Shown here: piece after piece, positions 23,261 to 60,862 of the stretch
Position numbering within the stretch: position 1 is the stretch's first letter
Layout: every line of letters begins with the position of its first letter
Virus record (IMG/VR): IMGVR_UViG_3300047160_007578
Coordinates: 32,001-96,000 of that record
Reading direction: 5' to 3' (one strand)
DNA from: a virus
Length of the DNA: 64,000 nt
Position numbers and translations under genes: made by a program
The notes under the pieces: model-generated
What the model saw: the letters and a program-made list of their open reading frames with translations, nothing else
Database searches by the model: none
Told to the model about the DNA's origin: nothing

Positions 23261-23286
23261 TAATCACCCCTTTCTTTGATCATTGA

Positions 23287-23502: not shown

Positions 23503-23553
23503 GAATCACCCCTTTCTGGATTATTGATCAAATCACAAAATCGAATCGATCAA

Positions 23554-23665
23554 ATTAATCAAATCTTTCCCGCGTGCGCGCGCAGCGCTCCGCTACTAAA
23601 TTATAACATATTATTTTGCCTATGTCAAGAAGAATTTTTCAAATCACCGGAATGATTTGATTAAT
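23554..23665 (-). promoter_or_regulatory. promoter cassette 1 with 17-bp terminal inverted repeats
   Basis: minus-strand TTGACA(23623-28)-17 bp-TATAAT(23600-05) with TG extension; arms ATTAATCAAATCTTTCC / GGAATGATTTGATTAAT. Confidence 0.9.
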
Positions 23666-23679
23666 TTACGCATGTAGTT

Positions 23680-23972
23680 TGGTTCTCACCCGACTAATGG
23701 ATTAAAAATCACCTGATACTTGGTTCTCATCAGGATCACAGCTACATTGGTTCTCACCAGTCGGATGGTTACACCTATCATTTGTTTCTTTCGCGGCCAG
23801 TGGATACTCACTCCTCATCTGGTTCACACGTGGATTATGGATTCGCTAGGATATTGGTTCACACTTCCTCGAAGGATAAACACTATCGGCTTGGTTCTCT
23901 CGCACGAACTGGATACTCACCGGGTTTTTGGTTCTCAACCGAGCTTGGATTCACTTGTGATCTGGTTCTCGT
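23680..23972 (-). ncRNA. TIGR-like dual-repeat guide-RNA array (~8 units)
   Basis: alternating TGGTTCWCAC and TGGWTAC(TC)AC-type repeats with 8-nt variable spacers. Confidence 0.8.
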
Positions 23973-23977
23973 GGATC

Positions 23978-24009
23978 GATCACACCCGGTATTGCTACCG
24001 GGTGTGATC
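23978..24009. terminator. perfect hairpin bordering the array
   Basis: GATCACACCCGGT-ATTGCT-ACCGGGTGTGATC. Confidence 0.6.
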
Positions 24010-24014
24010 ATTAA

Positions 24015-24248
24015 TCACGACTGCTTCGGTCCGGGAGCCGGCGTCGCGGGCGGAGTCGTCGGAGGCTGTTCCGGCGTCGCAGGCGGAGTACCCGGCTGAT
24101 GCGACGGCGCACCAGGTGGGACGTTGGGCTGGTGTCCCGGAGCCGGTGGTGCTCCGGGAGTAGGACGCTGTTCAGGCGTCCCGCCCGGCTTGACCGGCTG
24201 TTGCGACGGTCCACCAGCTTTGGTTTCACTCATGGGTTCTACCTCCAA
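24015..24248 (-). CDS. small Pro/Gly-rich low-complexity protein
   Basis: GGAGG RBS; repeated PPATP motifs. Confidence 0.55.
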   Translation of the reverse strand: MEVEPMSETKAGGPSQQPVKPGGTPEQRPTPGAPPAPGHQPNVPPGAPSHQPGTPPATPEQPPTTPPATPAPGPKQS

Positions 24249-24347
24249 GGGCGACAGGGGATGAGTTGGCGGTGAGCAACGATCTACGGACCAACTACGT
24301 GCACGACCTTATCCGTATCTTTGGTGATTTTTAATCAGGCGAACCAA

Positions 24348-25307
24348 TCAGGCCGATGCTTCGGGCGTTTCCCTCTCGGGATCATCCTGCTCCGCGGGCT
24401 CTTCCGTTGGTGTCTGGTTCATTTCCTCCGGAGTCAGCGGTCGAACCGGAGCAACCACCTTGGTTTCGACTGACACGCCACCGATGGTCAGCTTCGTAGC
24501 CTCTTCCTCGGGCTCAGGCTCGCTGGGCTCGGGCGTGGGCGGAGCGAGCCGCGGATCATTGATCGAAACCCACTGCTCGGTGTCCGGGTCGAACGCCTCG
24601 AAATACTTTGCCGAGTAGTTCTTGTCGTAGGCCGGATGGATCGACTCCGGGAAGCGAGTCCTGAGTTCCTCGATTGACTTGCCCTCCCACAGCGTCTTGA
24701 ACTTCGGCTTCTCGTGCAGCCGCGACGTGGGAATCCGACCGTCCCGCCAGATGAACCGGACCTTCCGGCGGTTCTCGATCGCCTTGAGCGCTTCGTGGTA
24801 TTCGGACTCGAAAGCCCACCAGAGCGCCTTGGCGGTCTTGTCACCCTGCATCTCGACGTACAGGATGCGGTCGTCTTCCTTGGGGATGACGAGATTACTA
24901 ATCGGACCGTCGATGCTGGGCTGGTCGCTGCCGTTGCAGGTGATCGACTTCTGCCGCGACAGGTGGAAATACACGACGGCCTCATCGCCGTCACGCTTGG
25001 CGAACGCGAAGGCACGCTCACCCTGATTGAAAACCTTGGTCACGACCGCGCGCTGCGCACTGCATTCCCAGCAGTGCCAGATCAGGAACCCGTCCCTGGA
25101 AACGGAAGCGATGGGCTTGTTGCACTTCGGGCAGGGGCGACTGACCTGTGCCGCACGCGACCATTCGACCATGAAGAAGGGCTGGAATCGTTCCTGAATC
25201 TTGGCGGCGCACTCAGCGCATTTGCAGCGCTTGTCGTGCGAGCCAGCGACGGATTCGGTGTCGTCATCCGGGGTTTGGACGACGGCCTGGGAAATGTTCT
25301 CGCTCAT
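24348..25307 (-). CDS. Zn-ribbon plus cold-shock-like OB-fold protein
   Basis: CPKC..CWEC then FAFAKR...VYFHLS (RNP1/RNP2-like). Confidence 0.6.
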   Translation of the reverse strand: MSENISQAVVQTPDDDTESVAGSHDKRCKCAECAAKIQERFQPFFMVEWSRAAQVSRPCPKCNKPIASVSRDGFLIWHCWECSAQRAVVTKVFNQGERAFAFAKRDGDEAVVYFHLSRQKSITCNGSDQPSIDGPISNLVIPKEDDRILYVEMQGDKTAKALWWAFESEYHEALKAIENRRKVRFIWRDGRIPTSRLHEKPKFKTLWEGKSIEELRTRFPESIHPAYDKNYSAKYFEAFDPDTEQWVSINDPRLAPPTPEPSEPEPEEEATKLTIGGVSVETKVVAPVRPLTPEEMNQTPTEEPAEQDDPERETPEASA

Positions 25308-25406
25308 ACGAGGCTCCTGAGGGTTAGGGCGAAAGGGATTTCGGACTACGCCAGGAACACCCCAGCGTTTATGGTCCAAACAATACTTTTCGATCATTAA
25401 TCTTTC

Positions 25407-25691
25407 TTACAAATCTGTTCGAGCTTTTTCGATAGCGGCCAATTCTTCCTGGGCCTGGGCGCGACAATCCATTTGGACTGCGAATTCAGACGCACGAGAC
25501 TCGAATGCCGGTAGACTCTCTCCTTCCCTTATTCTGAGGAAACAGACTAATTCACCGTCCTTGGCATCCGGACCAAGGAAAATCGGGATGAAAGCGATTG
25601 AATCCTCCTTTCCGTTTTTCCGAAGAAATTCCACGTCCCCTGAGTAATAAATCACCGCCGGCATAATACACTCCTTAAGTGGTTCCCGCAT
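25407..25691 (-). CDS. hypothetical protein
   Basis: true start probably MPAV, downstream of the array. Confidence 0.55.
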   Translation of the reverse strand: MREPLKECIMPAVIYYSGDVEFLRKNGKEDSIAFIPIFLGPDAKDGELVCFLRIREGESLPAFESRASEFAVQMDCRAQAQEELAAIEKARTDL

Positions 25692-25891
25692 CGGATTTGG
25701 TTACACGAGTACCTTGGTTCACGCGCACGAAATGGTTACGCGACGATTATGGTTCCCACTGTTTGTATGGTTACGCTTCTACGTTTGGTTCTCGTCCATC
25801 TGATGGTTCCATTCGCCGGGCTTGGTTCTCACATCGAGATTGATTAAAAATCACTGCTCCTATGGTTCTCACGTGGTGCGAGGATAATCAC
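25680..25891 (-). ncRNA. TIGR-like array immediately downstream of the Tas gene (~6 units)
   Basis: TGGTTCCCGC-ATCGGATT-TGGTTACAC-GAGTACCT-TGGTTCACGC-GCACGAAA-TGGTTACGC...; 35-nt period. Confidence 0.85.
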
Positions 25892-26958
25892 GCTCCCATT
25901 TCGGCGAGCTTCTTCCCGGTGCTCTCTCGCCAGACCGTCAGGTTCGGCGGAGCGATGTAGTGTCGATGATCCGTTCCAAGCGCCTGATTGAGAGTCTCAG
26001 ACAGAGCGAAGGGTTTCGGTGGCTCACGCCCGAAAAAGTCCTGGTAGAAGATTTCGTGCATGTGACTCATAAAGAGTTTTGTTACCCATCGCCGGGATCG
26101 AGCCAGCATGTGCCCATCCGGCAATCGTCCAGTGATGTAGACCTTGTAGGCATCCGTGGTCTTGCGAACTCGCTTGGCACCGGCCGCTGCTTGATCCTGA
26201 TAGTCGCCGCGGTCATTCTTAGCGTCCTCGTAGGCCCGTCGCTGGGCGTACAATGCGCCGTAGAAGTCCTTGGCGTTTCCTTGAACCTTGATGAAACAGC
26301 TGCCCGCATGGAAACACAACTGTTTCACACTGGCTGCCCACGGGCGCTTGGCCAGCAGTGCGATGACATCTTCGCGAGTGTTCGCTTCGCGTTCTTCGCG
26401 TTCGCCCAGGCGCTGGATTTTGCCGAGTAGCTCCGTCAGAGTCCACTTGGCCTTTCCTGCGATAGCGGTCAGATCATCAATCGGAACCGCGCCTTTGGGC
26501 TTGACCCGGTCTTCCAGGACTTCCTTGACCAGTGCCTCGGACTTGGCCTTGCCGAGCCATTCCCTTGTGGGGTCGAGTCCCGCGAACCGCCACCAGTGAC
26601 CGACGGTTTCAGGAATCGGTGTGCTCAGGTTGGCCAAGAATCCGGCGCTGATTACTGGTCCGATGCCGCAGATGCTCTGGAGCCATTCGCCGGCACGGAA
26701 ACTGGCAGCGAATGCGCCAAGAGCGGACTTGATGTTGCTTTCCAGGGTATTGAGATTGTCGAAGGTCCATTCTAATAGTTTGGACGGCTCGCCGGCTTCG
26801 GTGGAAGTCCGGTGACGGTTTCCAGAACTCACACGGAAGTCCTGGATTTGATAATAGATATCGACCAGGAATCGGGCTTCATTCCGGCCGATCAGACGAG
26901 CCGCGGCCCGCAGGTCGCGATTGAGTTTGTCCAGAGCCTCGTATTGTTCTTCTGGCAT
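25888..26958 (-). CDS. tasA: TasA-like Nop-domain RNA-guided protein (IS110-related, no nuclease domain)
   Basis: N-terminal coiled coil, then LQSICGIGPVISAGFLA, WWRFAGLDP and C-terminal HMLARSRRWVTKLF; no N-terminal DEDD RuvC or HNH; arrays on both sides. Confidence 0.8.
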   Translation of the reverse strand: MPEEQYEALDKLNRDLRAAARLIGRNEARFLVDIYYQIQDFRVSSGNRHRTSTEAGEPSKLLEWTFDNLNTLESNIKSALGAFAASFRAGEWLQSICGIGPVISAGFLANLSTPIPETVGHWWRFAGLDPTREWLGKAKSEALVKEVLEDRVKPKGAVPIDDLTAIAGKAKWTLTELLGKIQRLGEREEREANTREDVIALLAKRPWAASVKQLCFHAGSCFIKVQGNAKDFYGALYAQRRAYEDAKNDRGDYQDQAAAGAKRVRKTTDAYKVYITGRLPDGHMLARSRRWVTKLFMSHMHEIFYQDFFGREPPKPFALSETLNQALGTDHRHYIAPPNLTVWRESTGKKLAEMGA

Positions 26959-27018
26959 GGTTCACATCCTTTCTCCGGTCGTTGACCGGAATGCGATTAT
27001 TAATCAACGTCTCTTTTT

Positions 27019-27375
27019 TGGTTCACGCGAGCTTCACGGTTACACTCCTTCTTGGGTTCTCGCGAAGTCAGTGGTTACGCGCCTTGTATGGTTCTCACGG
27101 TATCAATGGTTTGTCCGCTCCTCCTTTCTCGGAGCCAACGGAACAGGCTCCTGTTTGCACATTCCCTCCGTGGTTCTCACAGTCGCGTTGGTTACGCTCC
27201 TTTCGTGGTTCTCTCGGGCAAATTGGTTACACCTGCATTCTGTTTCTAGCAAAGCGGGTGGTTTTACGCAAATCATCTGGTTCACGCGGGTGCGATGGTT
27301 GCACTCCCTGATCGTGGTTCTCGCATTTAGACTGGTTACTCTCAAGCACTGGTTCCCACCAAACTGATGGTTAGC
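27019..27375 (-). ncRNA. TIGR-like array immediately upstream of the Tas gene (~9 units)
   Basis: alternating 10-nt TGGTTCTCRC and 9-nt TGGTTACRC repeats with 8-nt unique spacers; one loop repeat carries a ~45-nt insert. Confidence 0.88.
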
Positions 27376-27739
27376 TGATTTCCTTAAAGCCGGGGAACTT
27401 CATCTGGTTCTCGATGACGGTTTTCCAGACGCCATCGATCTGGATGGACAGCAGCCGCTCCGGATCGAAACAGCGATACTGTTCTTGCGGGTATTCGTAG
27501 ACGCCGATGAGTCCCTTCTTCTTGAAATCGACGCCCTTGTTGTACGGATTCTTCGCCAACAGAATCTCGTCGGCGATCCCGGTGGCACACTCCATGCCGC
27601 GGATCGTGCCGTCAGCCTTGACGAAACGGATATGGAACCGAACACGGGGATGTTCTTCGATCCACTTCTTCGCGTCCGCGAGTGAAATGACCGTGGTATT
27701 GGCCGCTGGATCAGGAGTTACGATTTCAGGGGTATCCAT
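27371..27739 (-). CDS. WYL-like / SH3-fold (DUF2693-type) protein
   Basis: IRFVKADGTIRGM...VYE....YRCF. Confidence 0.65.
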   Translation of the reverse strand: MDTPEIVTPDPAANTTVISLADAKKWIEEHPRVRFHIRFVKADGTIRGMECATGIADEILLAKNPYNKGVDFKKKGLIGVYEYPQEQYRCFDPERLLSIQIDGVWKTVIENQMKFPGFKEIS

Positions 27740-27796
27740 TGTTGCACCTACTTTCTGCCCCATAGGGGCGTTGATTAAAAATCACAGACTGGTTGA

Positions 27797-28027
27797 TTAA
27801 CTGAACTTCTTACCGAAGACTCGTTGCGCTCGGTCCTTTGTCATGACTCCCGGCCCGCTGCGGACAGTCGCGAAGAGTTCTTCAAGCGGCTGGCCATAAT
27901 ATTGGTACGAGTCGAGCAACGCCTCAGCGCCGGCTCGGTTCTCGTCTTTGGGAAAGAAGCCGACTTCGCTCAGGTCGTACTTCTTCATGAACTCGACCAC
28001 TTGGTCCAAATCAGCATTACTTATCAT
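27797..28027 (-). CDS. hypothetical protein
   Basis: shares a duplicated leader with the neighbouring gene. Confidence 0.6.
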   Translation of the reverse strand: MISNADLDQVVEFMKKYDLSEVGFFPKDENRAGAEALLDSYQYYGQPLEELFATVRSGPGVMTKDRAQRVFGKKFS

Positions 28028-28093
28028 ATCACCTACTTTCTGCTCCATTGGAGCGTTTTGATTAAAGATCACCGACAATGTGGTTCTCGTTTG

Positions 28094-28342
28094 TTACTTG
28101 GTTACGAATTCGATCTGCTCCATCGGAACGAATCCGCCGAACGGTCGCGTATGCACGGCAAAGCCACGCCCACCATAGGTGGTATCCTGGGCACTGCCGA
28201 TGATGTTGTCGTTGTCGTCCAGAACGAAACCATAGCGGCGTCCTGGTCCGTTGTCCTGAGTCAATCTGACCCGAAATTTCCCTCCCAAAATTGAGTGCCA
28301 GACAGCAGTGACGCTGTCAGTGTCAGCTTTAATCGTTGCCAT
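28094..28342 (-). CDS. hypothetical protein
   Basis: GAGGT RBS. Confidence 0.65.
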   Translation of the reverse strand: MATIKADTDSVTAVWHSILGGKFRVRLTQDNGPGRRYGFVLDDNDNIIGSAQDTTYGGRGFAVHTRPFGGFVPMEQIEFVTK

Positions 28343-28361
28343 TGTTACCTCACTCGGGTTT

Positions 28362-28434
28362 TGTTTCTCACCAAAATTCTGGATTCACCCGCTCGTCTGG
28401 TTCTCACCACTCTTTTGGATCATTGATCAATCAC
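28362..28434 (-). ncRNA. short TIGR-like array (2 units)
   Basis: TGTTTCTCAC-N8-TGGATTCAC-N9-TGGTTCTCAC-N8-TGGATC.. Confidence 0.6.
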
Positions 28435-28736
28435 TCCGGGCGTTCTTGGCGAGTCGGGATCGGCAGCTGCGCCGCCATGATCGTGAACTCGAACGGGCAG
28501 CCGAACATGTAAATCTTGAACCGCGTTTCCTCCGGCCAGCGATGACGCCACGGCAGGAAATCCTGAGCTTGCTGCGTGCCAGGCGGAGGAAATTCCACAT
28601 CCGGAACGATCAGAAGCGTATCGGTTGCAGTGAGATACACGCCAGGACCGTTGAACTTGAAATCGTTACCCAGGTAGGTTTCGATTTGTTTGCCGGTTCC
28701 TGAGTGTGTCCAGTCAGGCATTACTTGGTACGGCAT
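28431..28736 (-). CDS. hypothetical protein
   Basis: stop/start coupling. Confidence 0.6.
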   Translation of the reverse strand: MPYQVMPDWTHSGTGKQIETYLGNDFKFNGPGVYLTATDTLLIVPDVEFPPPGTQQAQDFLPWRHRWPEETRFKIYMFGCPFEFTIMAAQLPIPTRQERPE

Positions 28737-29002
28737 TATCCACCTTTCGGATAAGAGGGGTGTTTCTCGCGTCCGCGAGTATATCCGTCGCAGAACGCCC
28801 GCAGACGGAGAACAGTGTTTTCGTCGAGTTGGCCCCGCTTTTCAAGATCGTAGTGAAAATCGAGAAAAATATGGCCAGCATCCTTGCGATTAATAGTCAC
28901 ATCCACATCATAGAGGTCAGCAAGTTCCTCTTGTAGCTCTTTTGCCAGCATGGGCAAATGAATGTGGACACTGTAGATTGTTTGCGACACTATCATGATC
29001 AC
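28736..29002 (-). CDS. hypothetical protein
   Basis: tiles operon. Confidence 0.6.
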   Translation of the reverse strand: MIMIVSQTIYSVHIHLPMLAKELQEELADLYDVDVTINRKDAGHIFLDFHYDLEKRGQLDENTVLRLRAFCDGYTRGREKHPSYPKGG

Positions 29003-29060
29003 CTATCCTTTCCGGCCAATAACGGCCACTGCGATTAATAATCACCACTCGGGGTGGGAT

Positions 29061-29567
29061 TTACCACTCGGGGTGGAACTCATTCCAGTCGACGCTCTTG
29101 TTGACGGTCTGGCCGAGGTTGGCACAGAACACTTCAATCGGGTCTTCGGCATCGAGCACGACGACGAACTTCATGTCGCCGCCGATGATGACTTCGTAAT
29201 ATTTCGGATTTTCGATTTCCACGACGATTCCACCTTTCCTGTTTTCGTTGCTGGCGAAAGTCTGTTCTGCACAGTAGAACTCGATCAGCCGCTTCACGAA
29301 CGCGCAGTTGTCCGCTTTCGCTGCGGCGTTGATCGCGGTGCATCCTTGCAGGTACGACAGTGCTTCCCTCACGCCGTACAGGTTGACATCTTGCCAGAAC
29401 TGAATGGCATACGCCTGATCATCCAGACAGGCGTCAACAGCCATTTCCAGTCGGCGGACCCGGCAACCTTGATCGCCGCGGTCCATTTCCTCCAGAATCC
29501 GCTGAGTCAATCGTTGCTTTGCCATGATTTCTCTCTTCTGTATTACATGTCCAAATGTGAAGATCAT
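29061..29567 (-). CDS. hypothetical protein
   Basis: tiles operon. Confidence 0.6.
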   Translation of the reverse strand: MIFTFGHVIQKREIMAKQRLTQRILEEMDRGDQGCRVRRLEMAVDACLDDQAYAIQFWQDVNLYGVREALSYLQGCTAINAAAKADNCAFVKRLIEFYCAEQTFASNENRKGGIVVEIENPKYYEVIIGGDMKFVVVLDAEDPIEVFCANLGQTVNKSVDWNEFHPEW

Positions 29568-29804
29568 TAATCATTCCTTGAGTTGAATCGTTTCGTCCAG
29601 GTCCAATGCAGGTTGCACCACGCGAACCTGAAAGCACAGACCAGGATATTCTTTCCGGAACAGTTCGATAGCCCGCTCTTTGGTGGCACAAACGTATCGT
29701 CCCCATTTCGAGCCGCCGCAACCACTTGTTGTGCCCACGTCGTAGACCCAATTCGCGGATACTATGAACTCGTATTGCATCGTATCATTCCTTTCGATTA
29801 AAAA

Positions 29805-30242
29805 TCAGTACGGGCGTTTCATCTTGATCCCGAGCTTTTCTCGTATCGCTACGATACTCAGTTCTTGTTTCTGTTCCTCAGTCAGCGTCAGGTACTTGGG
29901 CGCGCACTCGTCGCAGATCGCGTTGTTGAATCCTTTCGACTTCGGCTCCGTCAGGATCACACCCTTGCAGAGCACGCACTCTGTCCAGTGGATGTTCGCG
30001 ATGCCGGGTTCCTTTTCCCAGCCATCGGAAATACTGCCTGTCCGACGGAAGTGTTGTACTGCGAGACGCCGATAATGCTCCAGCAGCACCTTCCGCGACA
30101 TTCGCTTCGGCGACACTGGAAAACGATACACTGTAGAGCGGTGATCCTTTTCCACGCCGAAAGCGAGTTTCACGGCCGCATGTTCGGTCGGTGCTTGCTC
30201 GCATCGTATCGCGTTGCCATAAGCTACTGCGAAGTAGGCCAT
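29805..30242 (-). CDS. hypothetical protein with C-terminal Zn finger
   Basis: CVLC..CDEC. Confidence 0.6.
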   Translation of the reverse strand: MAYFAVAYGNAIRCEQAPTEHAAVKLAFGVEKDHRSTVYRFPVSPKRMSRKVLLEHYRRLAVQHFRRTGSISDGWEKEPGIANIHWTECVLCKGVILTEPKSKGFNNAICDECAPKYLTLTEEQKQELSIVAIREKLGIKMKRPY

Positions 30243-30463
30243 TTTAACCCTCGATTGAGAATTTTCCGCTCAGAGCCTTGTTCAGACCCTCTTGCGGAGT
30301 AAGGATACCGTGGACGACTTGCTTGTAAAGCTTTTCGTCCCCGAACTTCTTCACCCACTTGATCGTTGTGCGGCACGTCTCGCAGCAGTGAGCACCAGGC
30401 TCTTCGCAAACCGCACGATTGCAACCGTAGCACAGTTCCATGAATCGTCCTTTCGATTAAAAA

Positions 30464-30667
30464 TCAGTTTCCCAGGCACGCGAGAACCAGGTCCATCGGA
30501 CTGCCAGCCGGCCAGATGATCCGGTTATTAGCCGGAATCCTGACGGCGGGGTAGCTCTTGCCTTCGTAGCAGTAGCTAACCGACTTGTTACCGTTGGCGT
30601 CCTCACAGGGCACCACGGTCGTGCAGCCGCGATTTTCCAACCACAGCTTCATCGTAATGTAGTCCAC
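30464..30667 (-). CDS. hypothetical protein, first gene after promoter cassette 2
   Basis: GAAAGGTGGTGA RBS plus GTG. Confidence 0.6.
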   Translation of the reverse strand: MDYITMKLWLENRGCTTVVPCEDANGNKSVSYCYEGKSYPAVRIPANNRIIWPAGSPMDLVLACLGN

Positions 30668-30746
30668 GAATCACCACCTTTCATTGTTTGATCATTAATC
30701 ATTTCCGAGTCACGATACTCAAATCTGATCAATAATCGCAGGCCAA

Positions 30747-30859
30747 ATTAATCAAATCTTTCCGGCGGACCGCGCGCAGCGCTCCGCTATTAAAGTATAC
30801 CATATTATTTTGCCTATGTCAAGAGGAATTTTTTGACCTATCGAAAAGATTTGATTAAT
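30747..30859 (-). promoter_or_regulatory. promoter cassette 2 with terminal inverted repeats
   Basis: TTGACA(30817-22)-17 bp-TATACT; same arms and GC-rich CGCAGCGCTCCGCTA block as cassette 1. Confidence 0.9.
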
Positions 30860-30874
30860 CTCGCTCTCTCCTTA

Positions 30875-31084
30875 TGGTTCTCACAAAACCATTGGCTGAT
30901 TAATAATCGCGAGTCGCTTGGTTCACACTCGTATAATGGATACGCTACGAGTTTGGTTCTCACGCTGTCCAAGGATACACCTTCGGTCTGGTTCTCACCG
31001 ATCAGATGGTTGCACCGCCCAATGGTTCTCACCATCTTTTTGGCTACACCTTCCAGTTGGTTCTCACAGCCACGACGGTTAAGC
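30875..31084 (-). ncRNA. orphan TIGR-like array (~6 units)
   Basis: TGGTTCWCAC x6 alternating with (T/A)GG(A/T/C)TACRC-type repeats, 7-8-nt spacers. Confidence 0.82.
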
Positions 31085-31329
31085 CAAGTCACTGCAATGT
31101 GGACAAAGTGATCGCGGAGTCGCGTTGTCCGGATTAGAGCAGTTCGGGTGATGAAAAGAAGTCCAGTATTTGACCGTGTGATCTTCACCTTTCTGCCGAA
31201 TCAATTCTTGCGCGTAGTGATTGGCACCGGCCGCACTTTTCATCTGAGCGACGATTCGGCCGTTTTTATGCAGTACCTTCCACGGACGAGCGGGATCAAT
31301 CAGCATTATTGGTCCTTTCACGTACTCAT

Positions 31330-31394
31330 TGGTTCGCACCAGGACATTGGATACAAGAGCTATGGTTCTCACCATCCACCTGATTAATAATCAC
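31330..31394 (-). ncRNA. short TIGR-like array (2 units)
   Basis: TGGTTCGCAC-N8-TGGATAC..-TGGTTCTCAC-N8-TGATTAATAATCAC. Confidence 0.6.
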
Positions 31395-31404
31395 ACTCGT
31401 TGGA

Positions 31405-31872
31405 CTAAGCATGTGGTTTGATGGGCGAAGCCATCTTTTCGTAGACCTTCGGCATTCCGAGGTTGGCGTGTTCGTCCTTGTGAACGAGACTGACCACCTT
31501 GAAGTGCGCCAGCTTGTTGAGTTCGTGGTTGTCGAACATGTGGTCGTAGGTCGGGTTCATGATCGTGGCCATCATCCGCTTGCATTTTTGGCCGGGCTTG
31601 GCCGGATGCGGACCACCACTATCGCGAAAGGCGCTCGCGATACAGTGATGGATCGGATTGGTTGTGCAAAATGCGATTTCGCACAACAACCAATCGTGCC
31701 ATTGGAATTCGATTCCTTCCGACACATACATATGCGGCAGGCCAGATTCCTTGTAGACTTTGATGACCTCGAAAACTGAGATACTCACCAGACCCTCCTT
31801 TCGATTAAAGATCACACGACCTTTTTTGGTTCCCGCTGGATCAATGGTTACACCGTGGACCTTGGTTCTCAC
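31405..31872 (-). CDS. hypothetical protein (true start probably near 31.79 kb)
   Basis: 5' end of the ORF overlaps repeats; AGGAGG RBS at ~31795. Confidence 0.55.
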   Translation of the reverse strand: MRTKVHGVTIDPAGTKKGRVIFNRKEGLVSISVFEVIKVYKESGLPHMYVSEGIEFQWHDWLLCEIAFCTTNPIHHCIASAFRDSGGPHPAKPGQKCKRMMATIMNPTYDHMFDNHELNKLAHFKVVSLVHKDEHANLGMPKVYEKMASPIKPHA

Positions 31873-31889
31873 TTGCCACAGGGTTACTC
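31802..31889 (-). ncRNA. short TIGR-like array (2 units)
   Basis: TGGTTCCCGC-N8-TGGTTACAC-N9-TGGTTCTCAC-N8-GGGTTACTC. Confidence 0.65.
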
Positions 31890-31901
31890 TGATTCGTAGC
31901 C

Positions 31902-32342
31902 CTAGTATTTGCGCAACGGAGTGTTGGGAAGGGACAAGTCTCTGCGGTAGATCGGCTTGATGCCGCAGCCATGCGCAGACCAGTGAACGGTCCAGGGAAT
32001 TTGTTCGTTATTATTTATGGTATAGATTTCGATTCCTTCCTCTGGAATCTCCAGTGAAGCGAGCTTGAGTTCCCAAAACCACGCGTAGTCCCGCTTGAGC
32101 ATTTCCAGAGGAAAATCATGTTTTTGATCGAGATTGAGTACGCGGGCGACGTGAACATATTGAGCCTTCGGGCACAAAACCAGTTCGGCAACTGCTGCTT
32201 CGATCATGGTCGTTGGTTCGCCTGGAACCGCCCGGATCATGACACGATCATTCGGTGCGCCTGGAGTCTCTGTCGATGCGAATGGGAAGCTGATTATTTC
32301 CACGATCCGGCCCTGAAGCGTGGCTTGGTCGTATGGTTTCAC
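31902..32342 (-). CDS. hypothetical protein
   Basis: 146-aa ORF with RBS. Confidence 0.6.
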   Translation of the reverse strand: MKPYDQATLQGRIVEIISFPFASTETPGAPNDRVMIRAVPGEPTTMIEAAVAELVLCPKAQYVHVARVLNLDQKHDFPLEMLKRDYAWFWELKLASLEIPEEGIEIYTINNNEQIPWTVHWSAHGCGIKPIYRRDLSLPNTPLRKY

Positions 32343-32378
32343 GATTATTAATCCTTTCGGACGAATTGTCCTTTTGGT

Positions 32379-32690
32379 TCACGCGTCCGCAAACGCGCAT
32401 TCATTGGTGCAGTAAACGGCGACAGAACTGACAAAAAGTGGCTTGTTGCATTCTTCGTAGGCGCACCGCCGTCCCTTCGGATGGAGCTTGCCTTCGAGCC
32501 ATCCACGACCGTGACACGTCTCACAGTCTTTGGGTTGACTTGTCATAACACCTTCACCGAAACCAGTTCCACCGCAGTCATCACACTGCGAGCAATCTTC
32601 AGGATAGTGCGGGTCACGAGGAATCCTCAAGCCGAAGTGTACACCTTGGCGAGGTTCTTCCTGTTTCGTGTGTTTGTGATGTTTTCGCAC
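32379..32690 (-). CDS. protein with DnaJ-type CxxCxGxG finger and treble-clef finger
   Basis: CDDCGGTG, CETCHGRG, C..EC...YCTNEC. Confidence 0.65.
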   Translation of the reverse strand: MRKHHKHTKQEEPRQGVHFGLRIPRDPHYPEDCSQCDDCGGTGFGEGVMTSQPKDCETCHGRGWLEGKLHPKGRRCAYEECNKPLFVSSVAVYCTNECAFADA

Positions 32691-33198
32691 GGTTGTCCTT
32701 TCGGAACTTATTGCGATATCTGATTTCTTTTGCTACGCGGTACCAATCAAGGTTCTCTGGATAAGCCGGGCACTTGCTCCAGAGAACCTGTAATTGATCA
32801 TCCGACATAGCCTGGAGTTCAGGATCAGTCGGTAGGGACATTATTCAGAAATCTCCACAGAGTCCACATCCTCCATTGCGTCTTTGCGAGTCCTATAGAA
32901 CATCGGGTCGCATCGACTTTTTTCGGCGGCAACCTTGACGCCCTTGCAAAACGCTACCAGTTCGGCCCTGGTTTCAAACCGATGGCAGGAAGGTTCCATG
33001 ACGCCTTCCCAACCGATCCAGATTTCCAGCATGATTTTTAATCCTCCCGATTAGCAGCCACGAAGGAGTCGTACATTTCTTCGCCGTGGAACTTCCTGGC
33101 TGTTTCACGGAGAACCTGATCCCACCCTGGGCGCTGTAGGCTAAGGATAGCCAAAGCAAGCAAGACCAGTTGACGTTGTTCTTCGTCAATGGGTTCCA

Positions 33199-33537
33199 TT
33201 AGGACATGAACCTCTTGTCCCCGGCCATGATCCGGTCCACGGCTTCCCAGGTGAACTCCACCGGTGGAACGTATGAATTCAGCGGGGCGACCAGAGCGAA
33301 TTTGAGCTGACGCCCGATGATTTTGGACGGAAATTCCTGGTCCAGAATCACGAGTGTGCAATTTTCGCCGGTCCAGCGATCGGCGATTCGTTGAATTTCG
33401 GGTGGATGAGTCTCCACGACGGTTCTCCTGTTGATAACGGTTTTCGCCATGATCGAAATTCCTTTCGAGCCGAGGCATCCTCGGTTCCTAAAACAGGTCC
33501 TTGATGCCTTGAATGTCGGTTTCGGACAAGCTACCAA
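33199..33537 (-). CDS. hypothetical protein
   Basis: tiles operon; start probably internal (MAKT). Confidence 0.55.
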   Translation of the reverse strand: MVACPKPTFKASRTCFRNRGCLGSKGISIMAKTVINRRTVVETHPPEIQRIADRWTGENCTLVILDQEFPSKIIGRQLKFALVAPLNSYVPPVEFTWEAVDRIMAGDKRFMS

Positions 33538-33925
33538 AGCCTGCCCGCAGAGCCGAGTAAAAATCGAGAATGAGGGTTTTCTCCGACTCGCGCCATGCGT
33601 ATCGAACAGCCGATTCGCGGTACGGGCCGGCGTTGACGATGATCTTGAGGGACTTGAACGTACCTCCTTCCTGTTGTTTCTTGTCGATCAGTTCTCTGAC
33701 GAATCGCTCGAAGTATCCGTCGTAGTCTTGAGCGACAACGACTTGAGGTCCCGGTATCGAGAATCCCATGATTAAAAATCTTTCTACCCCGTCGGGGCTG
33801 TTAATTGTAACCATCATTGAGAAGGACGAATTCGCCGGTGTGTAGATCAACCACACCCCACGGAATCGTTGTCGCGCCCCACACTTGACATAGCGCCCAG
33901 TTTGCTGCCTTGAAAGCGGTTTCAA
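33488..33925 (-). CDS. hypothetical protein
   Basis: tiles operon. Confidence 0.5.
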   Translation of the reverse strand: MKPLSRQQTGRYVKCGARQRFRGVWLIYTPANSSFSMMVTINSPDGVERFLIMGFSIPGPQVVVAQDYDGYFERFVRELIDKKQQEGGTFKSLKIIVNAGPYRESAVRYAWRESEKTLILDFYSALRAGFGSLSETDIQGIKDLF

Positions 33926-34639
33926 ACCGGTGGGGCAGAAGCTCGTTAATATCCCCTCGTAGGATCACGAACATCAGAGCATCCTTTCTTGATTTACGGG
34001 AAGGTTCTCCGAGAGACTCCGAAAGCGATATCCCCGCCAGATCGCTTGGAAGTGAACTTGATGGTGACGCTTGTAGCGGCATCTTCGTCGTTAAAAATTT
34101 CGACACCGCAGATATCGTCAGGGCTAACGACGAGACGCTTATCGTCGCCCAACATTGTGACCATGAGCATCGGGAAGGGTGTTCCAGCGAACTCAACCCC
34201 ATCGATACGAGCACGCTGATCATTGGGGCGACCAGTAGCTCGGGGCGTGACCCATACCACCACACCAACCGGAGGAATCTCCAGTTTTGATTTTTGATCA
34301 CGTGACACCATTTTCCTTCCTCCTGTTCCGCCAGTACATCCGCGCGAGCGGCTTGCTGGCCCAGCCTGGGTGATGTGGCGCGTTATGTGCTGATACGCAT
34401 TGACGAAGCGTACCGTCATAACCCAGGATACACATGAAATGTCCACGACGCCAGATTCGACCCCCGGCAACGTGAGCCGTTGTGAGCGACCACCCGTGCC
34501 GTATTAGTCTGCCGAGATTTTTCATTCTTCTCTCCTTGACTTCGGCGTTCCTGGCCAAGATGGCGCATTCACACCGATATCGTTTGCACTTGAAACAGAG
34601 CGTTAACATTGAGTGGGTCATCGGTTCCCTCCGTAGTTT

Positions 34640-35179
34640 TCACGGACCAACCGGAGCAGGATTCTCCGGTGTCCCAGGCGCGCTTCCGTACAGCCACTTG
34701 CCGGTACGTGCGTGTACTTTGGCTTCGAGAGATCGCATCCTGGCCAAAGCGACCGCTTCTTCCAGGTGCGGATTCGCTTCCTCGCAGCAGAGACAGTACC
34801 GAACTGCCTCGCTTTCGGTGAAGCCAGTACGCTCACAGCGCAGGATTTCATCGTCGATGGACTTCGCGTACACACCATCCAGAGGCGTATCCGGCATGTC
34901 ACGTCCCGCGATCGCGCGATCAACGCGCCCGCGAACGTTGTCCAGGTACGTTCCTTCCACCGGATTCTTCGAGTCCACCAGCTTGCCGAACACCGTGAGC
35001 ACGTTTGACCCACGTTCGCGGATATAGCGAGTGCCCACCTGCTGGATTTCCGGCGACGGATAGAAGCTGCGGCGTTGGAAAGCCTTAGCCGCATCTTCAA
35101 TCGTATCGGTCTCGCACACCGAAATCACGATCGCAAGATCGTTTTTCGAGTGGAGCACGTCAACGAGTTCAAAGATCAC
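34640..35179 (-). CDS. hypothetical protein
   Basis: AGGTAGGTG RBS. Confidence 0.65.
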   Translation of the reverse strand: MIFELVDVLHSKNDLAIVISVCETDTIEDAAKAFQRRSFYPSPEIQQVGTRYIRERGSNVLTVFGKLVDSKNPVEGTYLDNVRGRVDRAIAGRDMPDTPLDGVYAKSIDDEILRCERTGFTESEAVRYCLCCEEANPHLEEAVALARMRSLEAKVHARTGKWLYGSAPGTPENPAPVGP

Positions 35180-35415
35180 ATTTCACCTACCTTTCTGGCC
35201 CAGAGCCATTGGGATTATTGATCATTCCGGTTCGAGCGAACCGCCGAACCAGCCGAGCACTTCTTCGACGTTCGCTTCGGATGAACAGTTCCGAATTGCG
35301 TCAAGCAATTTCTGCTTGCGCTCTTCCCAGGTGACGACAGGGTCGCCGCCGATCACAGACAGAGCTTCGGCGGCAGTTTCGTACTGATCCATTTTTCTCC
35401 CTTTCACTAACTACT

Positions 35416-35511
35416 TGGTTCCCACTCCTTGGATGGTTACGCTTCTTCGTTTGGTTCCCACTGGCTGGTTGGTTACACCATGGTCTTGGTTCTCTCGGCT
35501 CGATCGGTTTA
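35416..35511 (-). ncRNA. orphan TIGR-like array (3 units)
   Basis: TGGTTCCCAC-N8-TGGTTACGC-N9-TGGTTCCCAC-N8-TGGTTACAC-N8-TGGTTCTCTC. Confidence 0.78.
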
Positions 35512-35865
35512 AGTGTGAAGAGCCGCTTCGATTTCCACCAGGCGATTCTCAGGGAAGCCACAGAGTATCGCGAATGGACGCAGATCGCTGGTGTCCATGC
35601 TCGGATACTTCTTGCCTTCGCTCCTGGAGAACTCGAACCGTTCGCGAAGATTTTTGATCAGCCGAGCCAACTTTGGCTCGACTTCGACTTCCTTGCCGGT
35701 GTCCTCATCCGTCATGACGAAGACGCCTTGATTGTCCGCTGTGACGAAAGCGCAATCTTGTTCGTCAGCCGGTTGCATCCAGATTTGGAAGTAGACCGAC
35801 GTAACATGATCGTAACCGGCGGCGAAGCGGTACTTCTCGCCGTCGAATTCCACCCGAGTGCCCAT
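35509..35865 (-). CDS. hypothetical protein
   Basis: GAAAGGAAGTGA RBS. Confidence 0.65.
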   Translation of the reverse strand: MGTRVEFDGEKYRFAAGYDHVTSVYFQIWMQPADEQDCAFVTADNQGVFVMTDEDTGKEVEVEPKLARLIKNLRERFEFSRSEGKKYPSMDTSDLRPFAILCGFPENRLVEIEAALHT

Positions 35866-36072
35866 GAATCACTTCCTTTCGCCGATTGAGTTGATGGCGT
35901 CATCGAACGCCTTATTGTACTCCCGATTTTCCCGCTGTTGGACCGTTCCTTTGTAGCTCTGAAACAGGCACACTCCGGCGGTCACAAAGACCATGCCGAG
36001 AACGATGCAGACAGCACAAAACAGGTCTCTCACGAATCACCACCTTTCATTGTTAGGATCAATCCAACTTTC

Positions 36073-36134
36073 TGATTATTGATCACGCAACCACAATGGT
36101 TCTCACGCTCGGGGTGGTTATTTGATCATTAATC
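36073..36134 (-). ncRNA. single TIGR-like unit just downstream of promoter cassette 3
   Basis: TGGTTCTCAC-GCTCGGGG-TGGTTA flanked by palindrome-containing repeats. Confidence 0.45.
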
Positions 36135-36143
36135 ATTGGCCAG

Positions 36144-36256
36144 ATTAATCAAATCTTTCCGACGCGCGGCGCGCATCGCTCCGCTACTATAGCTTACCAT
36201 ATTATTTTGCCTATGTCAAGAGGAATTTTTCAGATTGTTGGAAAGATTTGATTAAT
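36144..36256 (-). promoter_or_regulatory. promoter cassette 3 with perfect 17-bp terminal inverted repeats
   Basis: TTGACA(36214-19)-17 bp-TAAGCT; ATTAATCAAATCTTTCC...GGAAAGATTTGATTAAT. Confidence 0.88.
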
Positions 36257-36301
36257 CTCGCCTTTTGTCCACAAAAAGCTACCTTGCTTTTCGATTATTA
36301 A

Positions 36302-36889
36302 TCAATCTCTTCCAAGCTTCTTAAATTGAGCACTAATCGAAGCCAATTGGAAACTGAGATAAGTGACAGGAGCATCAGCATGGCTGTGTAATAAATTCCA
36401 GAGTCGCGGAAAAGTGATCGCAGCACCACCTTCACTAATGAATTCCTTAACATTGTCGTCCGAATCATCGACAAGAATCTTGTTTGGCCCAGCACAGAAA
36501 TGTTTCGCGGGACCGATAAGGAACTGTGGAGCGAGTAACGGATAGTGTTTCTGCAACCAGTCAATTTTACCGGCGACAGATTCACCGACGCGATCCATCG
36601 GGAAATCGCCTTTGGATGTTGGCAGTGACGTACAGATACAGATTTCTTTCGGATCAAAGTAGGCGAGTATCATTTTCACAATATCATCAGCCCAGGGCGT
36701 CTTGTGAGCGTTCGCCCAAAAAGCATAATTGCATGGCTTCCACCACGGTTCAGGGATTTCGAGTCCCACCGAGAATCGCCATTCGCCTTTGACTTTCCAT
36801 TCGTTCGGGACACCAAAGGCTTCCGCGATTCCACGGTGGATATCAGCCAACACGCCGTCTAAATCAAGACAGCATTTGAGCTTAGGCAT
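36302..36889 (-). CDS. HAD-family 5'(3')-deoxyribonucleotidase
   Basis: LDLDGVLAD, ICTS, K..WL, ILVDD. Confidence 0.85.
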   Translation of the reverse strand: MPKLKCCLDLDGVLADIHRGIAEAFGVPNEWKVKGEWRFSVGLEIPEPWWKPCNYAFWANAHKTPWADDIVKMILAYFDPKEICICTSLPTSKGDFPMDRVGESVAGKIDWLQKHYPLLAPQFLIGPAKHFCAGPNKILVDDSDDNVKEFISEGGAAITFPRLWNLLHSHADAPVTYLSFQLASISAQFKKLGRD

Positions 36890-37005
36890 CTTTCCTCCTG
36901 ATCATTAATCATTCTTTCGGTTGATAATCCAATAAGCAAACGCGAATGCAGCCCCGACAATAAGAAATATAATTAAAACAATATCAAAGGGCTCGAATAT
37001 TTCTT

Positions 37006-45533: not shown

Positions 45534-45767
45534 TCAACCAGACACCGCCGGTTTCCACGGCGGCTTGGGCGGTGACGGCGGCGCGTGCGCATGACTCTGC
45601 ATGCAGTCGAACGAACAGAACATATCGTTGAACGTGACGCCATGCAACGGTCCACCGCAATTGGTGCACCTGTGCTGACCGCTCTGCGTCGAGTGCGTAT
45701 ACGCACCCGTGGACAGCTGCGGCGGTGGTGGTTTCTTCTGCTGTTTCTCAGTGAAAAATTCGTTCAT
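45534..45767 (-). CDS. FCS-type Zn-finger protein
   Basis: CTNC...FCSFDC. Confidence 0.65.
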   Translation of the reverse strand: MNEFFTEKQQKKPPPPQLSTGAYTHSTQSGQHRCTNCGGPLHGVTFNDMFCSFDCMQSHAHAPPSPPKPPWKPAVSG

Positions 45768-45782
45768 TGTTCACACCGTCTT

Positions 45783-45879
45783 TGGTTCTCGCAACATGGT
45801 GGATACGCGTAGATGGTGGTTCTCTCTACTCCTTCGGATACACCCACATAATGGTTCTCACGGCGATCAAGGCTATCCG
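45783..45879 (-). ncRNA. orphan TIGR-like array (3 units)
   Basis: TGGTTCTCGC-N7-TGGATACGC-N8-TGGTTCTCTC-N8-CGGATACAC-N8-TGGTTCTCAC. Confidence 0.75.
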
Positions 45880-54072: not shown

Positions 54073-54945
54073 TCACATCTTGTGAACCGCCATCAAATCA
54101 AGTACCTCAACTGGTGGACTGTATCTCAAGTGATTTTCTTTCGCGTATTCAACCAGATCGCGGTACAGATCAAGGTCACTGATTTCGCCGTTCGCCCATG
54201 CCAGAGCACGGGTTGCCAGATTCCCCTGTCCCATTTCTTCAATGATATGATCGATCATCTGGAAGATTTCTTCCGGATTCCGACGCTTCCGTTGCGTTGG
54301 CTTGGACTTCTTCTTCTTGATCACCGGAAGTCGTGTCTCGTTCCGAAGCTTCGCTTCCTTGATGGCCTTTGCCATCGTCATCTGTTCCGACGGGTCTTTG
54401 ATTTCAGAAAGATCATAAATCTGTCCCTGCGTCAAGAAGCCTGCCGCGGCTGCCTCTTGGATCGGTTCAGCCATCGAGAGCAAACCCATACGGATGACGA
54501 CCCACTTCTTGCCTTGTCCAGTGAGCCTAGCAATTTCGCCGATAGTGGCACCGAGTTTAATAAAACGATCGATACCGTGAGCTTCCTGCAATATATTCAA
54601 ATCCTGTCGTTGGATGTTCTCAACGAAATTGAGACCGAGAGCTTGAATCTCTGTCAAGCCCTCTCGAAGAATCGTGGGGATTGTTTCGCGCTCGAGATAC
54701 TCGTAAGCCGCGTATCGTCTGTGACCTACCACAACCTTGTATTTGTAGCCCGGAATATCGAACGGACGAACCGTGATCGGTTGAAGTAAACCCTGTGCCT
54801 CAATATCTTTTGCAAGCTCAACGATGCTTGCCGGATTAATCTCTCCGCGAATATTGAATTCCGGATCGGAAAAGATATCGGAAAGTAGAAAATGTTCTAC
54901 CTTCATATCCTTTTCATTTTCAGGAATGGCCACTGCGACGTTCAT
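54073..54945 (-). CDS. parB: ParB/Spo0J-like protein
   Basis: ELAKDI...GLLQPITVR, VVGHRRY (GxxR CTP motif), ENIQRQDL, HTH. Confidence 0.9.
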   Translation of the reverse strand: MNVAVAIPENEKDMKVEHFLLSDIFSDPEFNIRGEINPASIVELAKDIEAQGLLQPITVRPFDIPGYKYKVVVGHRRYAAYEYLERETIPTILREGLTEIQALGLNFVENIQRQDLNILQEAHGIDRFIKLGATIGEIARLTGQGKKWVVIRMGLLSMAEPIQEAAAAGFLTQGQIYDLSEIKDPSEQMTMAKAIKEAKLRNETRLPVIKKKKSKPTQRKRRNPEEIFQMIDHIIEEMGQGNLATRALAWANGEISDLDLYRDLVEYAKENHLRYSPPVEVLDLMAVHKM

Positions 54946-58993: not shown

Positions 58994-59118
58994 AAACAAA
59001 CGCCTCTTCCCTGTCCCTGCTTCGCGGCGTTTTCACTGGCTGTGTAATAGCACGAATACAGTTGCAATACTAAGGCCCACTGCTATGGGTATCGCTACCC
59101 ATAGCAGTGGACCGGCCA

Positions 59119-60217: not shown

Positions 60218-60371
60218 GCCTTATTCTCGGCAATGGGCATTGAAGCGTGTCGCCGTTTCTGACAACGACACCATCCATGTGAACTGTTCCGTTACCGTCA
60301 TCGACAGCCGTGTAAATCTCGCGGTGTCCTTCTCGTCGAGTCACGACTACTTCAACTTCACACTCTTCCAT

Positions 60372-60610
60372 TGGTTCGCACTCACAGCGGGGTTGAACAG
60401 GCTGTTTGGTTCACGCGTGGAATGTGACTTCACACCCGACTGCTGGTTCTCGCAACGGATAAGGCTACGCGCATCGTCATCGGTTCTCACCATGTGCATG
60501 ACTACACGTTTGACTTGGTTCCCGCACACTGCATGGCTGCACACTTCCATTGTTTCTCGCGAAGAAGGTGGCTACGCTCGGTACCTGGTTCTCGCCGCGG
60601 GTCTGTTTAC
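60372..60610 (-). ncRNA. orphan TIGR-like array (~7 units)
   Basis: TGGTTCNCRC repeats alternating with TGRCTRCRC-type repeats, 8-10-nt spacers. Confidence 0.8.
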
Positions 60611-60798
60611 TTCTTTTTCTTCTTGGCCATGCCTTTGAGCGTCTTGGCCAAGTTGCATCGTTTCTGCGTGGTGCCCGACAGGTTGCCCTGGGCACAGAAC
60701 TCGCTGATCGACATTCCGGCTGCAGCTGCTTGTCGCGTGAGTGCTCCCGGATTTTTGATCGCCTTCTGGATGAACTTCTTGGCCTTCTTTTTCGCCAT
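60607..60798 (-). CDS. small basic phage protein
   Basis: MAKKKAKKFIQKAIKNPGAL...LAKTLKGM. Confidence 0.7.
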   Translation of the reverse strand: MAKKKAKKFIQKAIKNPGALTRQAAAAGMSISEFCAQGNLSGTTQKRCNLAKTLKGMAKKKKK

Positions 60799-60862
60799 GA
60801 CAAACCCCTTACCTTTGGTTCGCACGCAGTCATTGGGTTTGATTAAAAATCCAATCAAAGGG

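Follow-up and report, generated by a model that had tools for sequence, protein, structure and literature searches.

Copies of a genome-wide palindrome in the probable edge repeats of dispersed TIGR arrays of a phage

Introduction

The repeats in arrays of tandem interspaced guide RNA (TIGR) begin with (U)G and end with CCA, and the first edge repeat of an array is truncated at its 5′ end and the last at its 3′ end, as described in the portions of Faure 2025 (PMC12045711) used here. The discussion of a preprint (10.64898/2026.09.09.750476) treats the origin of these arrays and their gain of spacers as an open question. Here, we analyze arrays of this kind in a phage represented by IMG/VR record IMGVR_UViG_3300047160_007578, a single virus contig of 130,262 bp (GC content 0.486); bases 32001-96000 of this contig, a stretch of 64,000 nucleotides (nt), are called the window and supply all coordinates below. 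The phage repeats lie on the minus strand and share the polarity of the published ones. A short palindrome that recurs throughout the genome also occurs within the arrays, and an earlier, sequence-only reading had proposed that it is built into loop repeats, either because it is gained wherever it is tolerated or because new guide units are seeded at palindromes. We favor an account close to the first of these, with a probability of about 0.58: pre-existing palindrome copies are tolerated and reused as edge repeats, with their TG and CA ends mimicking the bases of box D and box C, and they do not create new guides.

Results

Palindromes in the arrays fall in one repeat class and keep the spacer register

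There are 51 copies of the conserved repeat GNGNGAACCA. They form 14 clusters (A1 to A13 and A31, Table 1) that extend from 23655 to 60853, each within a gene junction and on the same strand as the genes. The conserved repeat alternates with more variable GNG..CCA repeats (GUGUAACCA type) across 8-nt spacers, or 9-nt spacers by the CCA-N9-UG convention. Within the repeats, G3 and the final (A)CCA are conserved and the base preceding the G is U, C or A, so that U is not strict. Among the regular units listed, the distance between units is 33-37 nt, and with a palindromic edge 40-44 nt. Our own rough gene call gave 208 genes, nearly all on the minus strand within the window; its start codons are approximate and at least one (28072) is wrong. 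Near-identical DNA is present in soil metagenome runs from 19 studies, with no RNA run among those listed.

All seven palindromic strings listed in the earlier reading are present (23698-23712, 25841-25854, 28416-28434, 30893-30910, 31381-31394, 31802-31815 and 36073-36088), and four more array copies lie at 26993-27010, 28059-28072, 36115-36135 and 60834-60853. Each of these 11 strict copies falls in the variable repeat class, which we regard as the edge repeat for reasons given below, and none falls in a spacer or in the conserved repeat (about 3e-7 for random placement). A box triplet or CA stands exactly 8 nt from the neighboring conserved repeat in ten of the 11 copies; the copy at 31802 is off by 3. 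As had been proposed, the spacer register is kept, with the copies at 23698, 25841 and 30893 exactly 8 nt from the neighboring conserved repeats on both sides. These three copies are internal and do replace a repeat within an array, but those at 28416, 31381, 31802 and 36073, which had been described in the same way, are terminal elements of small arrays. The eight terminal copies form the 3′ edges of A3, A4 and A8, the 5′ edges of A5, A7 and A13, and both ends of A10. Strict copies thus account for 8 of 28 terminal edges versus 3 of 37 internal edges (p = 0.045).

The flanks of the array copies also differ from those of copies elsewhere. The core is preceded by GT in 6/10 array copies compared to 28/206 other copies (p = 0.0013) and followed by CCA in 2/10 compared to 4/206, with two more array copies followed by AGCCA and AAATAACCA; these counts cover ten array copies, without A13. 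In five of seven palindromic-edge cases, GNG stands exactly 8 nt after the previous conserved repeat (p = 2e-5).

The arrays carry the palindrome at 1 per 209 bp (11 in 2,301 bp), compared to 1 per 180 bp (106 in 19,061 bp) for all other intergenic DNA. The observed 11 copies against 12.8 expected are neither an excess nor a lack (P(≥11) = 0.73), and a density equal to the intergenic background is the first of the outcomes that the earlier reading had itself named as refuting a link between palindrome and arrays. Four arrays (A31, A9, A11 and A12, with 19 of the 51 units) contain no palindrome, and the junctions that hold A9, A11 and A12 have no copy at all.

The palindrome is a genome-wide gene-junction element

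The sequence GATN5ATC is found 265 times in the genome, compared to 15-74 times for the same half-sites at other spacings. Its core, GATYWWWRATC (GAT[TC]WWW[AG]ATC), has 216 copies in the 130,262-bp genome and is usually preceded by T and followed by A, which yields the 13-bp palindrome TGATYAWTRATCA (TGAT..ATCA). The window holds 118 cores, with 1.15 expected from 100 shuffles and at most 4 in any of them. Intergenic DNA accounts for 116 copies in 21,154 bp and called genes for about 100. A core is present in 107 of 207 gene junctions and in 102 of the 158 junctions of at least 10 nt (about two thirds). The stop codon of the upstream gene is the palindrome's own TGA in 18 junctions, the palindrome center mostly lies 19-24 nt ahead of the next start codon, and there is a mild orientation bias in the transcript sense. 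Judged by this distribution, the palindrome is a genome-wide gene-junction element that appears to exist independently of the TIGR arrays.

Two functional assignments were considered and set aside. A fixed translation signal is unlikely, because the palindrome may precede the ribosome-binding site and the ATG, follow them or lie between them. A sigma-70 promoter was rejected; within 23200-37000, the top two promoter matches fall at separate TTGACA-17-TATAAT/TATACT sites.

Several arrangements of the palindrome were recorded in passing. A recurrent junction order on the minus strand runs from the palindrome through a short GC-rich hairpin and a AGAAAGTAGGTG-type ribosome-binding site to the ATG (27773, 28060, 29033, 35213 and 26995). 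Four copies lie within 100 bp (63879-63975) in a long stretch of intergenic DNA close to where the minus-strand gene block ends. At 58930-58995, tandem AGATCATAATTCT-like units stand beside a palindrome copy; these are iteron-like and may mark a replication origin.

Array-free sites in sister strains and paralogous leaders carry the palindrome

Three short metagenome contigs, L028, L029 and L030, encode Tas proteins that are 100, 95 and 94% identical to that of the phage. Array 2 is unchanged in L029, including its palindromic edge. In L030, the same array has collapsed to remnants, and the palindrome and the same neighboring 8 nt are kept; joints of the L030 type also occur in contigs of runs X2 and X5. 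Upstream of tas, L029 and L030 have one unit versus three in the window. The last edge there is a normal GCGAAACCA with a separate palindrome 3 nt behind it; the window has the palindrome itself at this edge position. Two units of the palindrome-free A31 are missing in L029 and L030 and in contigs of runs X2, X7 and X12.

A similar comparison can be made between leaders of the phage itself. In A10, a single unit stands between two palindromes in the leader behind the promoter module at 36144. The paralogous leader at 30690-30737 has no unit, and its two palindromes are separated by 26 unrelated nt. Loose contig ends beyond 23667 (run X5) and 30859 (run X12), 30 nt of each, lead into one array-free sequence, in which a palindrome lies about 10 nt from the promoter arm. 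In the comparison of empty sites that had been suggested as a check, a sister strain and a paralogous leader both have array-free sites that carry the palindrome.

The palindrome is absent from more distant Tas relatives, two of which (L003 and L004) nevertheless carry arrays at a distance of 4-9 kb from tas. A search of viral contigs for Tas relatives yielded four loci at 32-41% identity, all lacking the palindrome. A scan of viral contigs for the array pattern returned 23 loci, which are chance matches; none has arrays or the palindrome. Public phage records gave no DNA match to the phage and no match to its PolA protein, and a PolA search of viral contigs found no relative.

Two further differences between the strains concern the region upstream of tas. 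Compensatory changes in L029 and L030 preserve the pairing of a hairpin that lies between A31 and A3 (about 27125-27170). Within 27019-27376, the spacers of homologous units in L029 and L030 differ from those of the window at about half of their positions, versus a 5-6% difference in Tas protein, which points to possible fast turnover or diversifying selection of guides.

The variable repeat is probably the edge repeat

The palindrome-bearing repeat had been labeled the loop repeat, and this label is probably wrong. We consider it quite likely that the variable repeat is the edge. In the RNA sense (minus strand), 13 of 14 arrays have a variable-type repeat ending in CC(A/G/T/C), ACA or UCA exactly 8 nt before the first conserved repeat; this first repeat often lacks the 5′ GNG, and the irregular 5′ end of A1 is the exception. 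All 14 arrays end with a variable repeat or its 5′ part, with GNG exactly 8 nt after the last conserved repeat in ten of them (binomial 7e-10). Truncated first and last edges of this kind are those described in Faure 2025. GNGNGAACCA is central in all four one-unit arrays (A4, A5, A10 and A13), which therefore encode a complete guide only if GNGNGAACCA is the loop. Complementarity between the two end bases of the repeat middle is found in 23/35 internal variable repeats versus 7/51 conserved repeats, and such complementarity is the rule by which TIGRFinder assigns the edge phase, according to the Methods of the preprint (10.64898/2026.09.09.750476). The same layout is seen in the relative L001, where the homologous GUGAGAACCG repeat occupies internal positions and the other repeat both starts and ends the array downstream of tas.

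It is improbable that the original labels are right after all, with the variable 9-nt repeat as the loop, GNGNGAACCA as the edge and the palindrome filling a protein-free tetraloop region of the loop repeat. In the portions of Faure 2025 (PMC12045711) drawn on here, the middle of the TasR loop repeat has no base-specific protein contact, and the preprint (10.64898/2026.09.09.750476) uses the wording "conserved edge repeat", which would suit GNGNGAACCA as the better conserved repeat of this phage. However, every array would then start and end with a loop, the four one-unit arrays would encode no complete guide, and both the complementarity rule and the layout of L001 would have to be set aside; the A-rich AGAA middle of GNGNGAACCA also fits the loop as described in the same portions of Faure 2025.

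The phage encodes a nuclease-free, TasA-like protein

A profile built from 38 homologues of the phage Tas protein matched TaTasR 9MTY (E = 3e-20), with query residues 46-140 aligned to chain residues 123-214; the same profile matched IS621 at 1.3e-5 and TasH at 1.4e-4, and Pfam Transposase_20 was found in 25 of the 38 homologues. The AlphaFold model (mean predicted local distance difference test score, pLDDT, 89.4) consists of helices only, and its best fold matches are TasR 9MTY and TasH 9W04 (probability 1.00). Profile and fold both indicate a Nop-like RNA-binding domain, as in dual-repeat TIGR-Tas systems. No nuclease family (RuvC, HNH) was found in a Pfam scan of the protein and its homologues, and because the TasR alignment begins at chain residue 123, the N-terminal RuvC part would be absent from the phage protein. 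The lack of RuvC and HNH is that of the TasA subtype, and sequence and model together identify the effector as a predicted nuclease-free, TasA-like Tas protein. Arrays A2 and A3 flank tas, and the 12 further arrays lie up to 34 kb away.

Array features, promoter modules and a candidate palindrome-binding protein

Coordinates of the arrays and of the two protein-coding genes discussed here are collected in Table 1.

Table 1. Positions of the TIGR arrays, tas and the ParB/Noc-type gene in the window
Feature	Position	Strand	Description
A1	23655..23983	-	9 loop repeats; internal palindromic edge TGGATTAAAAATCAC at 23698-23712, one unit from 3′ end
A1, 3′ terminal edge	23655-23671	-	Arm of promoter module
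A1, 5′ end		-	Irregular; GTGATCGATCCA directly abuts first loop repeat
A2	25665..25891	-	6 units; begins inside tas stop codon; internal palindromic edge TGATTAAAAATCAC at 25841-25854, one unit from 5′ end
A2, 5′ terminal edge	25881-25891	-	GTGATTATCCT, half palindrome
tas	25888..26955	-	355 amino acids; all-helical TasA-like Nop-domain protein (profile, Pfam, AlphaFold model)
A3	26993..27116	-	3 units upstream of tas; palindrome 26993-27010 (core 26995-27005) replaces 3′ terminal edge
A31	27152..27375	-	6 units; no palindrome; two units missing in sister strains
A4	28059..28107	-	One unit; 3′ edge is palindrome 28059-28072; 5′ edge TCGTAACCA holds stop codon of upstream gene
A5	28380..28434	-	One unit; 5′ edge is palindrome 28416-28434, holding TGA stop of upstream gene
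A6	30852..31084	-	6 units; internal palindromic edge TGGCTGATTAATAATCGC at 30893-30910, one unit from 3′ end
A6, 3′ terminal edge	30852-30866	-	Arm of promoter module
A7	31310..31394	-	2 units; 5′ terminal edge is palindrome TGATTAATAATCAC at 31381-31394
A8	31802..31889	-	2 units; palindrome 31802-31815, 11 nt after last loop repeat and just before ribosome-binding site of next gene
A9	35398..35513	-	3 units; no palindrome in array or junction
A10	36073..36135	-	One unit; palindromes on both sides (36073-36088, 36115-36135); leader behind promoter module
A11	45766..45878	-	3 units; no palindrome in array or junction
ParB/Noc-type gene	54073..54942	-	Protein with helix-turn-helix domain; Pfam ParB_N + HTH_ParB
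A12	60352..60613	-	7 units; no palindrome in array or junction
A13	60799..60853	-	One unit, additional to the sequence-only reading; 5′ edge is palindrome + AAACCCA at 60834-60853

The internal edge of A7 (31348-31362) is 2 nt short; contigs of two runs insert CG after 31353, which gives a 9-nt edge and an 8-nt spacer. No unit is duplicated, and the closest pair differs at 5 of 16 positions. We searched the phage genome for sequences composed of spacer A, 0-2 nt and the reverse complement of spacer B, using 50 units (without A13), and found no match with up to one mismatch. With two mismatches there were 14 matches, a number like that of the controls (43 in three shuffled-pair runs; 12 with reverse-complemented spacers). 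No Rfam family reached its gathering score in the window.

Some irregularities of the units were also seen. The spacers that flank the edge at 30937-30945 are complementary over 7 nt (30927-30953). The unit at 23721 is short, with 27 nt to the next loop repeat (23721-23747), and about 6 nt of its two spacers are mutually complementary. Decamers resembling the loop repeat occur outside regular units at 26958-26967, overlapping the tas start codon, and at 27405-27414, in coding sequence upstream of A31; an orphan decamer of this kind lies at 32375-32384 in the junction 32343-32613.

Four near-identical, strong sigma-70-type promoter modules lie on the minus strand at 23554-23665, 30747-30860, 36144-36257 and 44848-44962. 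Each has TTGACA-17-TATAAT or a close variant, with inverted copies of GGAAAGATTTGATTAATC on both flanks as operator-like arms, and further arms occur near 965 and at 64362-64725. Arrays A1 and A6 end directly at promoter modules and A10 lies in the leader of another. What serves as the 3′ "edge" of A1 and of A6 is the upstream arm of the module itself (G.GAG-ATTAATC), and the same arm is present in the two array-free modules. The half-site TGATTAAT is common to these operator-like arms and the genome-wide palindrome.

The ParB/Noc-type protein encoded in the window matched Noc 7OL9 (E = 4e-22), Spo0J and KorB (6.5e-9) in the PDB. Our best guess is that the palindrome may be the binding site of a dimeric DNA-binding protein, for which this ParB/Noc-like protein of the phage is a candidate.

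Discussion

Proposed reuse of palindromes as edges

The arrangement described above could arise if two separate systems, the palindrome element and a TasA-type TIGR system, share the same intergenic space. A TIGR repeat may need only its outer bases, namely the (U)G of box D at the 5′ end and the C(C)A of box C at the 3′ end. With TG at its start and CA at its end, the palindrome could therefore replace the free middle of an edge repeat and leave the 8-nt spacers unmoved. The edge is the array position at which maturation cuts; its two halves pair, and it is under little sequence constraint. Copies at the ends of arrays may then serve as a terminal, half-needed edge, with a few lying one unit inside; since a terminal edge needs only one of its halves, a palindrome in the junction or a promoter arm that starts with GNG can serve. 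Array copies would be trimmed to fit, with a G two bases before the core creating GNG and with CCA added, and selection would remove copies from spacers and loops and adjust the flanks of those in edges. Reuse of this kind would account for the kept spacer register, the bias in the flanks, the excess at array ends, a density at background level and the retention of the motif at array-free sites. From the sequence, we infer that chimeric edges may be processed and the guides beside them loaded. The earlier suggestion that the palindrome is gained wherever it is tolerated therefore holds in part: its density is that of the background and it occurs only in the repeat class able to hold it, but the arrays appear to have absorbed a pre-existing junction element rather than to have had a palindrome added to them.

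Several observations weigh against this account. Palindromic edges make up 5 of 8 edges of one-unit arrays versus 6 of 57 other edges (p = 0.002), and all four one-unit arrays have at least one. Each of the three internal palindromic edges lies exactly one unit from an array end, although this pattern is not significant (p = 0.12). Both patterns are also expected if units are seeded at palindromes. Reuse by itself leaves the palindromic edge in every one-unit array unexplained; short junctions with one motif would be a sufficient, if putative, reason. The copies at 25841, 31381, 28059 and 36073 end with UCA and not CCA, an ending also found in two normal edges of A12. The preprint's wording on edges, quoted above, fits the conserved GNGNGAACCA repeat better than the variable one. 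The independence of the palindrome from the arrays is judged solely from its distribution. Finally, palindromic edges as free RNA have folding energies of 0 to -1.3 kcal/mol; such weak folding leaves a stem-like role of these edges unsupported and says nothing about guide loading.

Alternative explanations

We regard it as doubtful that the palindrome of the gene junctions serves as a proto-edge for the making or insertion of new guide units, with single units bracketed by palindromes being young arrays and the abundance of palindromes explaining the scatter of the arrays. Equally doubtful is the corollary that any palindrome copy starting with GUG or ending with (C)CA can nucleate a new guide unit, with A10 and the end units of A1, A2 and A6 the youngest. 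Besides the palindromic edges of the one-unit arrays, two of them in A10, seeding would account for the internal palindromic edges, each of which cuts off exactly one end unit, for the two units that the window has in excess of L029 and L030 on the palindrome side of array 3, and for the motif at orthologous and paralogous sites that are free of arrays; of the motif copies that do not belong to arrays, 28 already begin with GUGAU. However, array density equals the intergenic background, and the junctions without any copy include those of the two most distal multi-unit arrays, A11 and A12. The two units that differ between strains within A31 do so in an array that is palindrome-free, and the arrays of L003 and L004 stand in relatives that have no such palindrome. 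The flanks of array palindromes match those of other genome copies no better than background, no unit is duplicated, and the direction of change between the strains is not determinable. The proposal that units seeded at palindromes explain the dispersal of the arrays thus finds no positive support in the palindrome-free arrays, the unit turnover in A31 or the dispersed arrays of palindrome-free relatives.

Still less likely is a dedicated role in biogenesis, in which palindromic edges are hairpins or protein-binding marks (processing sites, internal starts or roadblocks) and a step towards stem-loop arrays. Palindromic sequences do hold the edge position in stem-loop TIGR arrays in the parts of PMC12045711 and 10.64898/2026.09.09.750476 cited here, edge halves pair in mature guide RNAs according to the corresponding parts of 10.64898/2026.09.09.750476 and 10.64898/2026.08.11.744272, and in this phage the palindrome extends the pairing of edge halves from 1-2 to 4-5 bp, and in any pair of copies the right half of one is complementary to the left half of the other; against this stand the weak folding energies, the restriction of the palindrome to 11 of 65 edges, the fact that A10 is the sole unit with palindromes on both sides and that its 5′ copy does not adjoin the box, the retention of the palindrome in sister strains where the array is gone, and the roughly 200 copies outside arrays, whose variable position relative to ribosome-binding sites, even between site and ATG, fits a DNA-level element.

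Implications

If guides beside chimeric edges are loaded, an edge would need only its box bases, a point of relevance to software for finding arrays and to the design of minimal guide cassettes. Seeding, if true after all, would give the first natural clue to the origin of TIGR arrays and to their gain of spacers. In either case, the phage is a natural test bed, with 14 arrays that include four single guides, edges made of a foreign palindrome and sister strains in which whole units differ. A further caution is that repeat length or conservation alone does not reveal which repeat is the edge and which the loop.

Comparison with known systems

Noc-binding sites, the KorB operators of plasmid RK2, the conserved inverted repeats of phiC31 and the stoperators of mycobacteriophages are dispersed sites of 13-17 bp. 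The phage palindrome resembles these protein-binding sites in being a short repeated site that occurs mostly in short intergenic spaces of one replicon. The likeness to ParB, Noc and KorB sites extends to a 13-bp palindromic site and to a ParB/Noc-type helix-turn-helix protein encoded by the phage, its candidate binder. Unlike Noc, KorB, phiC31 and stoperator sites, the palindrome is far denser (216 copies in 130 kb), and about 100 of its copies are coding.

A full-text literature search found no report of palindromes in dual-repeat edges or of arrays scattered through a phage genome; preprint supplements, TIGRSafari and figures S4/S5 of Faure 2025 were outside its scope and may list such edges. 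The comparisons that follow refer to the parts of the cited papers on which we draw. In stem-loop TIGR arrays (PMC12045711; 10.64898/2026.09.09.750476; PlTasA in 10.64898/2026.08.11.744272), palindromic stems of at least 5 bp, which are variable, replace the edges on the two sides of each spacer pair. In the phage, a minority of edges are palindromic (11/65), and their arms of 4-5 pairs are A/U-rich with a single fixed sequence. The phage loop repeat is conserved, and the same palindrome occurs about 200 times outside the arrays.

The phage locus is closer to dual-repeat TIGR-Tas systems with TasA (PMC12045711; 10.64898/2026.09.09.750476). In dual-repeat systems, repeats of 8-12 nt form units of about 36 nt, the arrays adjoin tas and finish at a terminator, and their transcripts are processed into tigRNAs of about 36 nt to which Tas binds. 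The phage locus shares with the TasA systems a Nop-domain Tas protein, two alternating short repeats of the form (N)G...CCA, pairs of 8-9-nt spacers, units of 35-37 nt and arrays directly upstream and downstream of tas. Compared to those systems, no terminator-like site was found after the phage arrays on their own, minus strand (23200-37000), and the edges are much more variable than the loops. The 51 units of the phage are split over 14 arrays in 14 junctions across 37 kb, with four arrays reduced to a single unit, and 11 of its 65 edges are chimeras with a genome-wide palindrome that is not part of the TIGR system.

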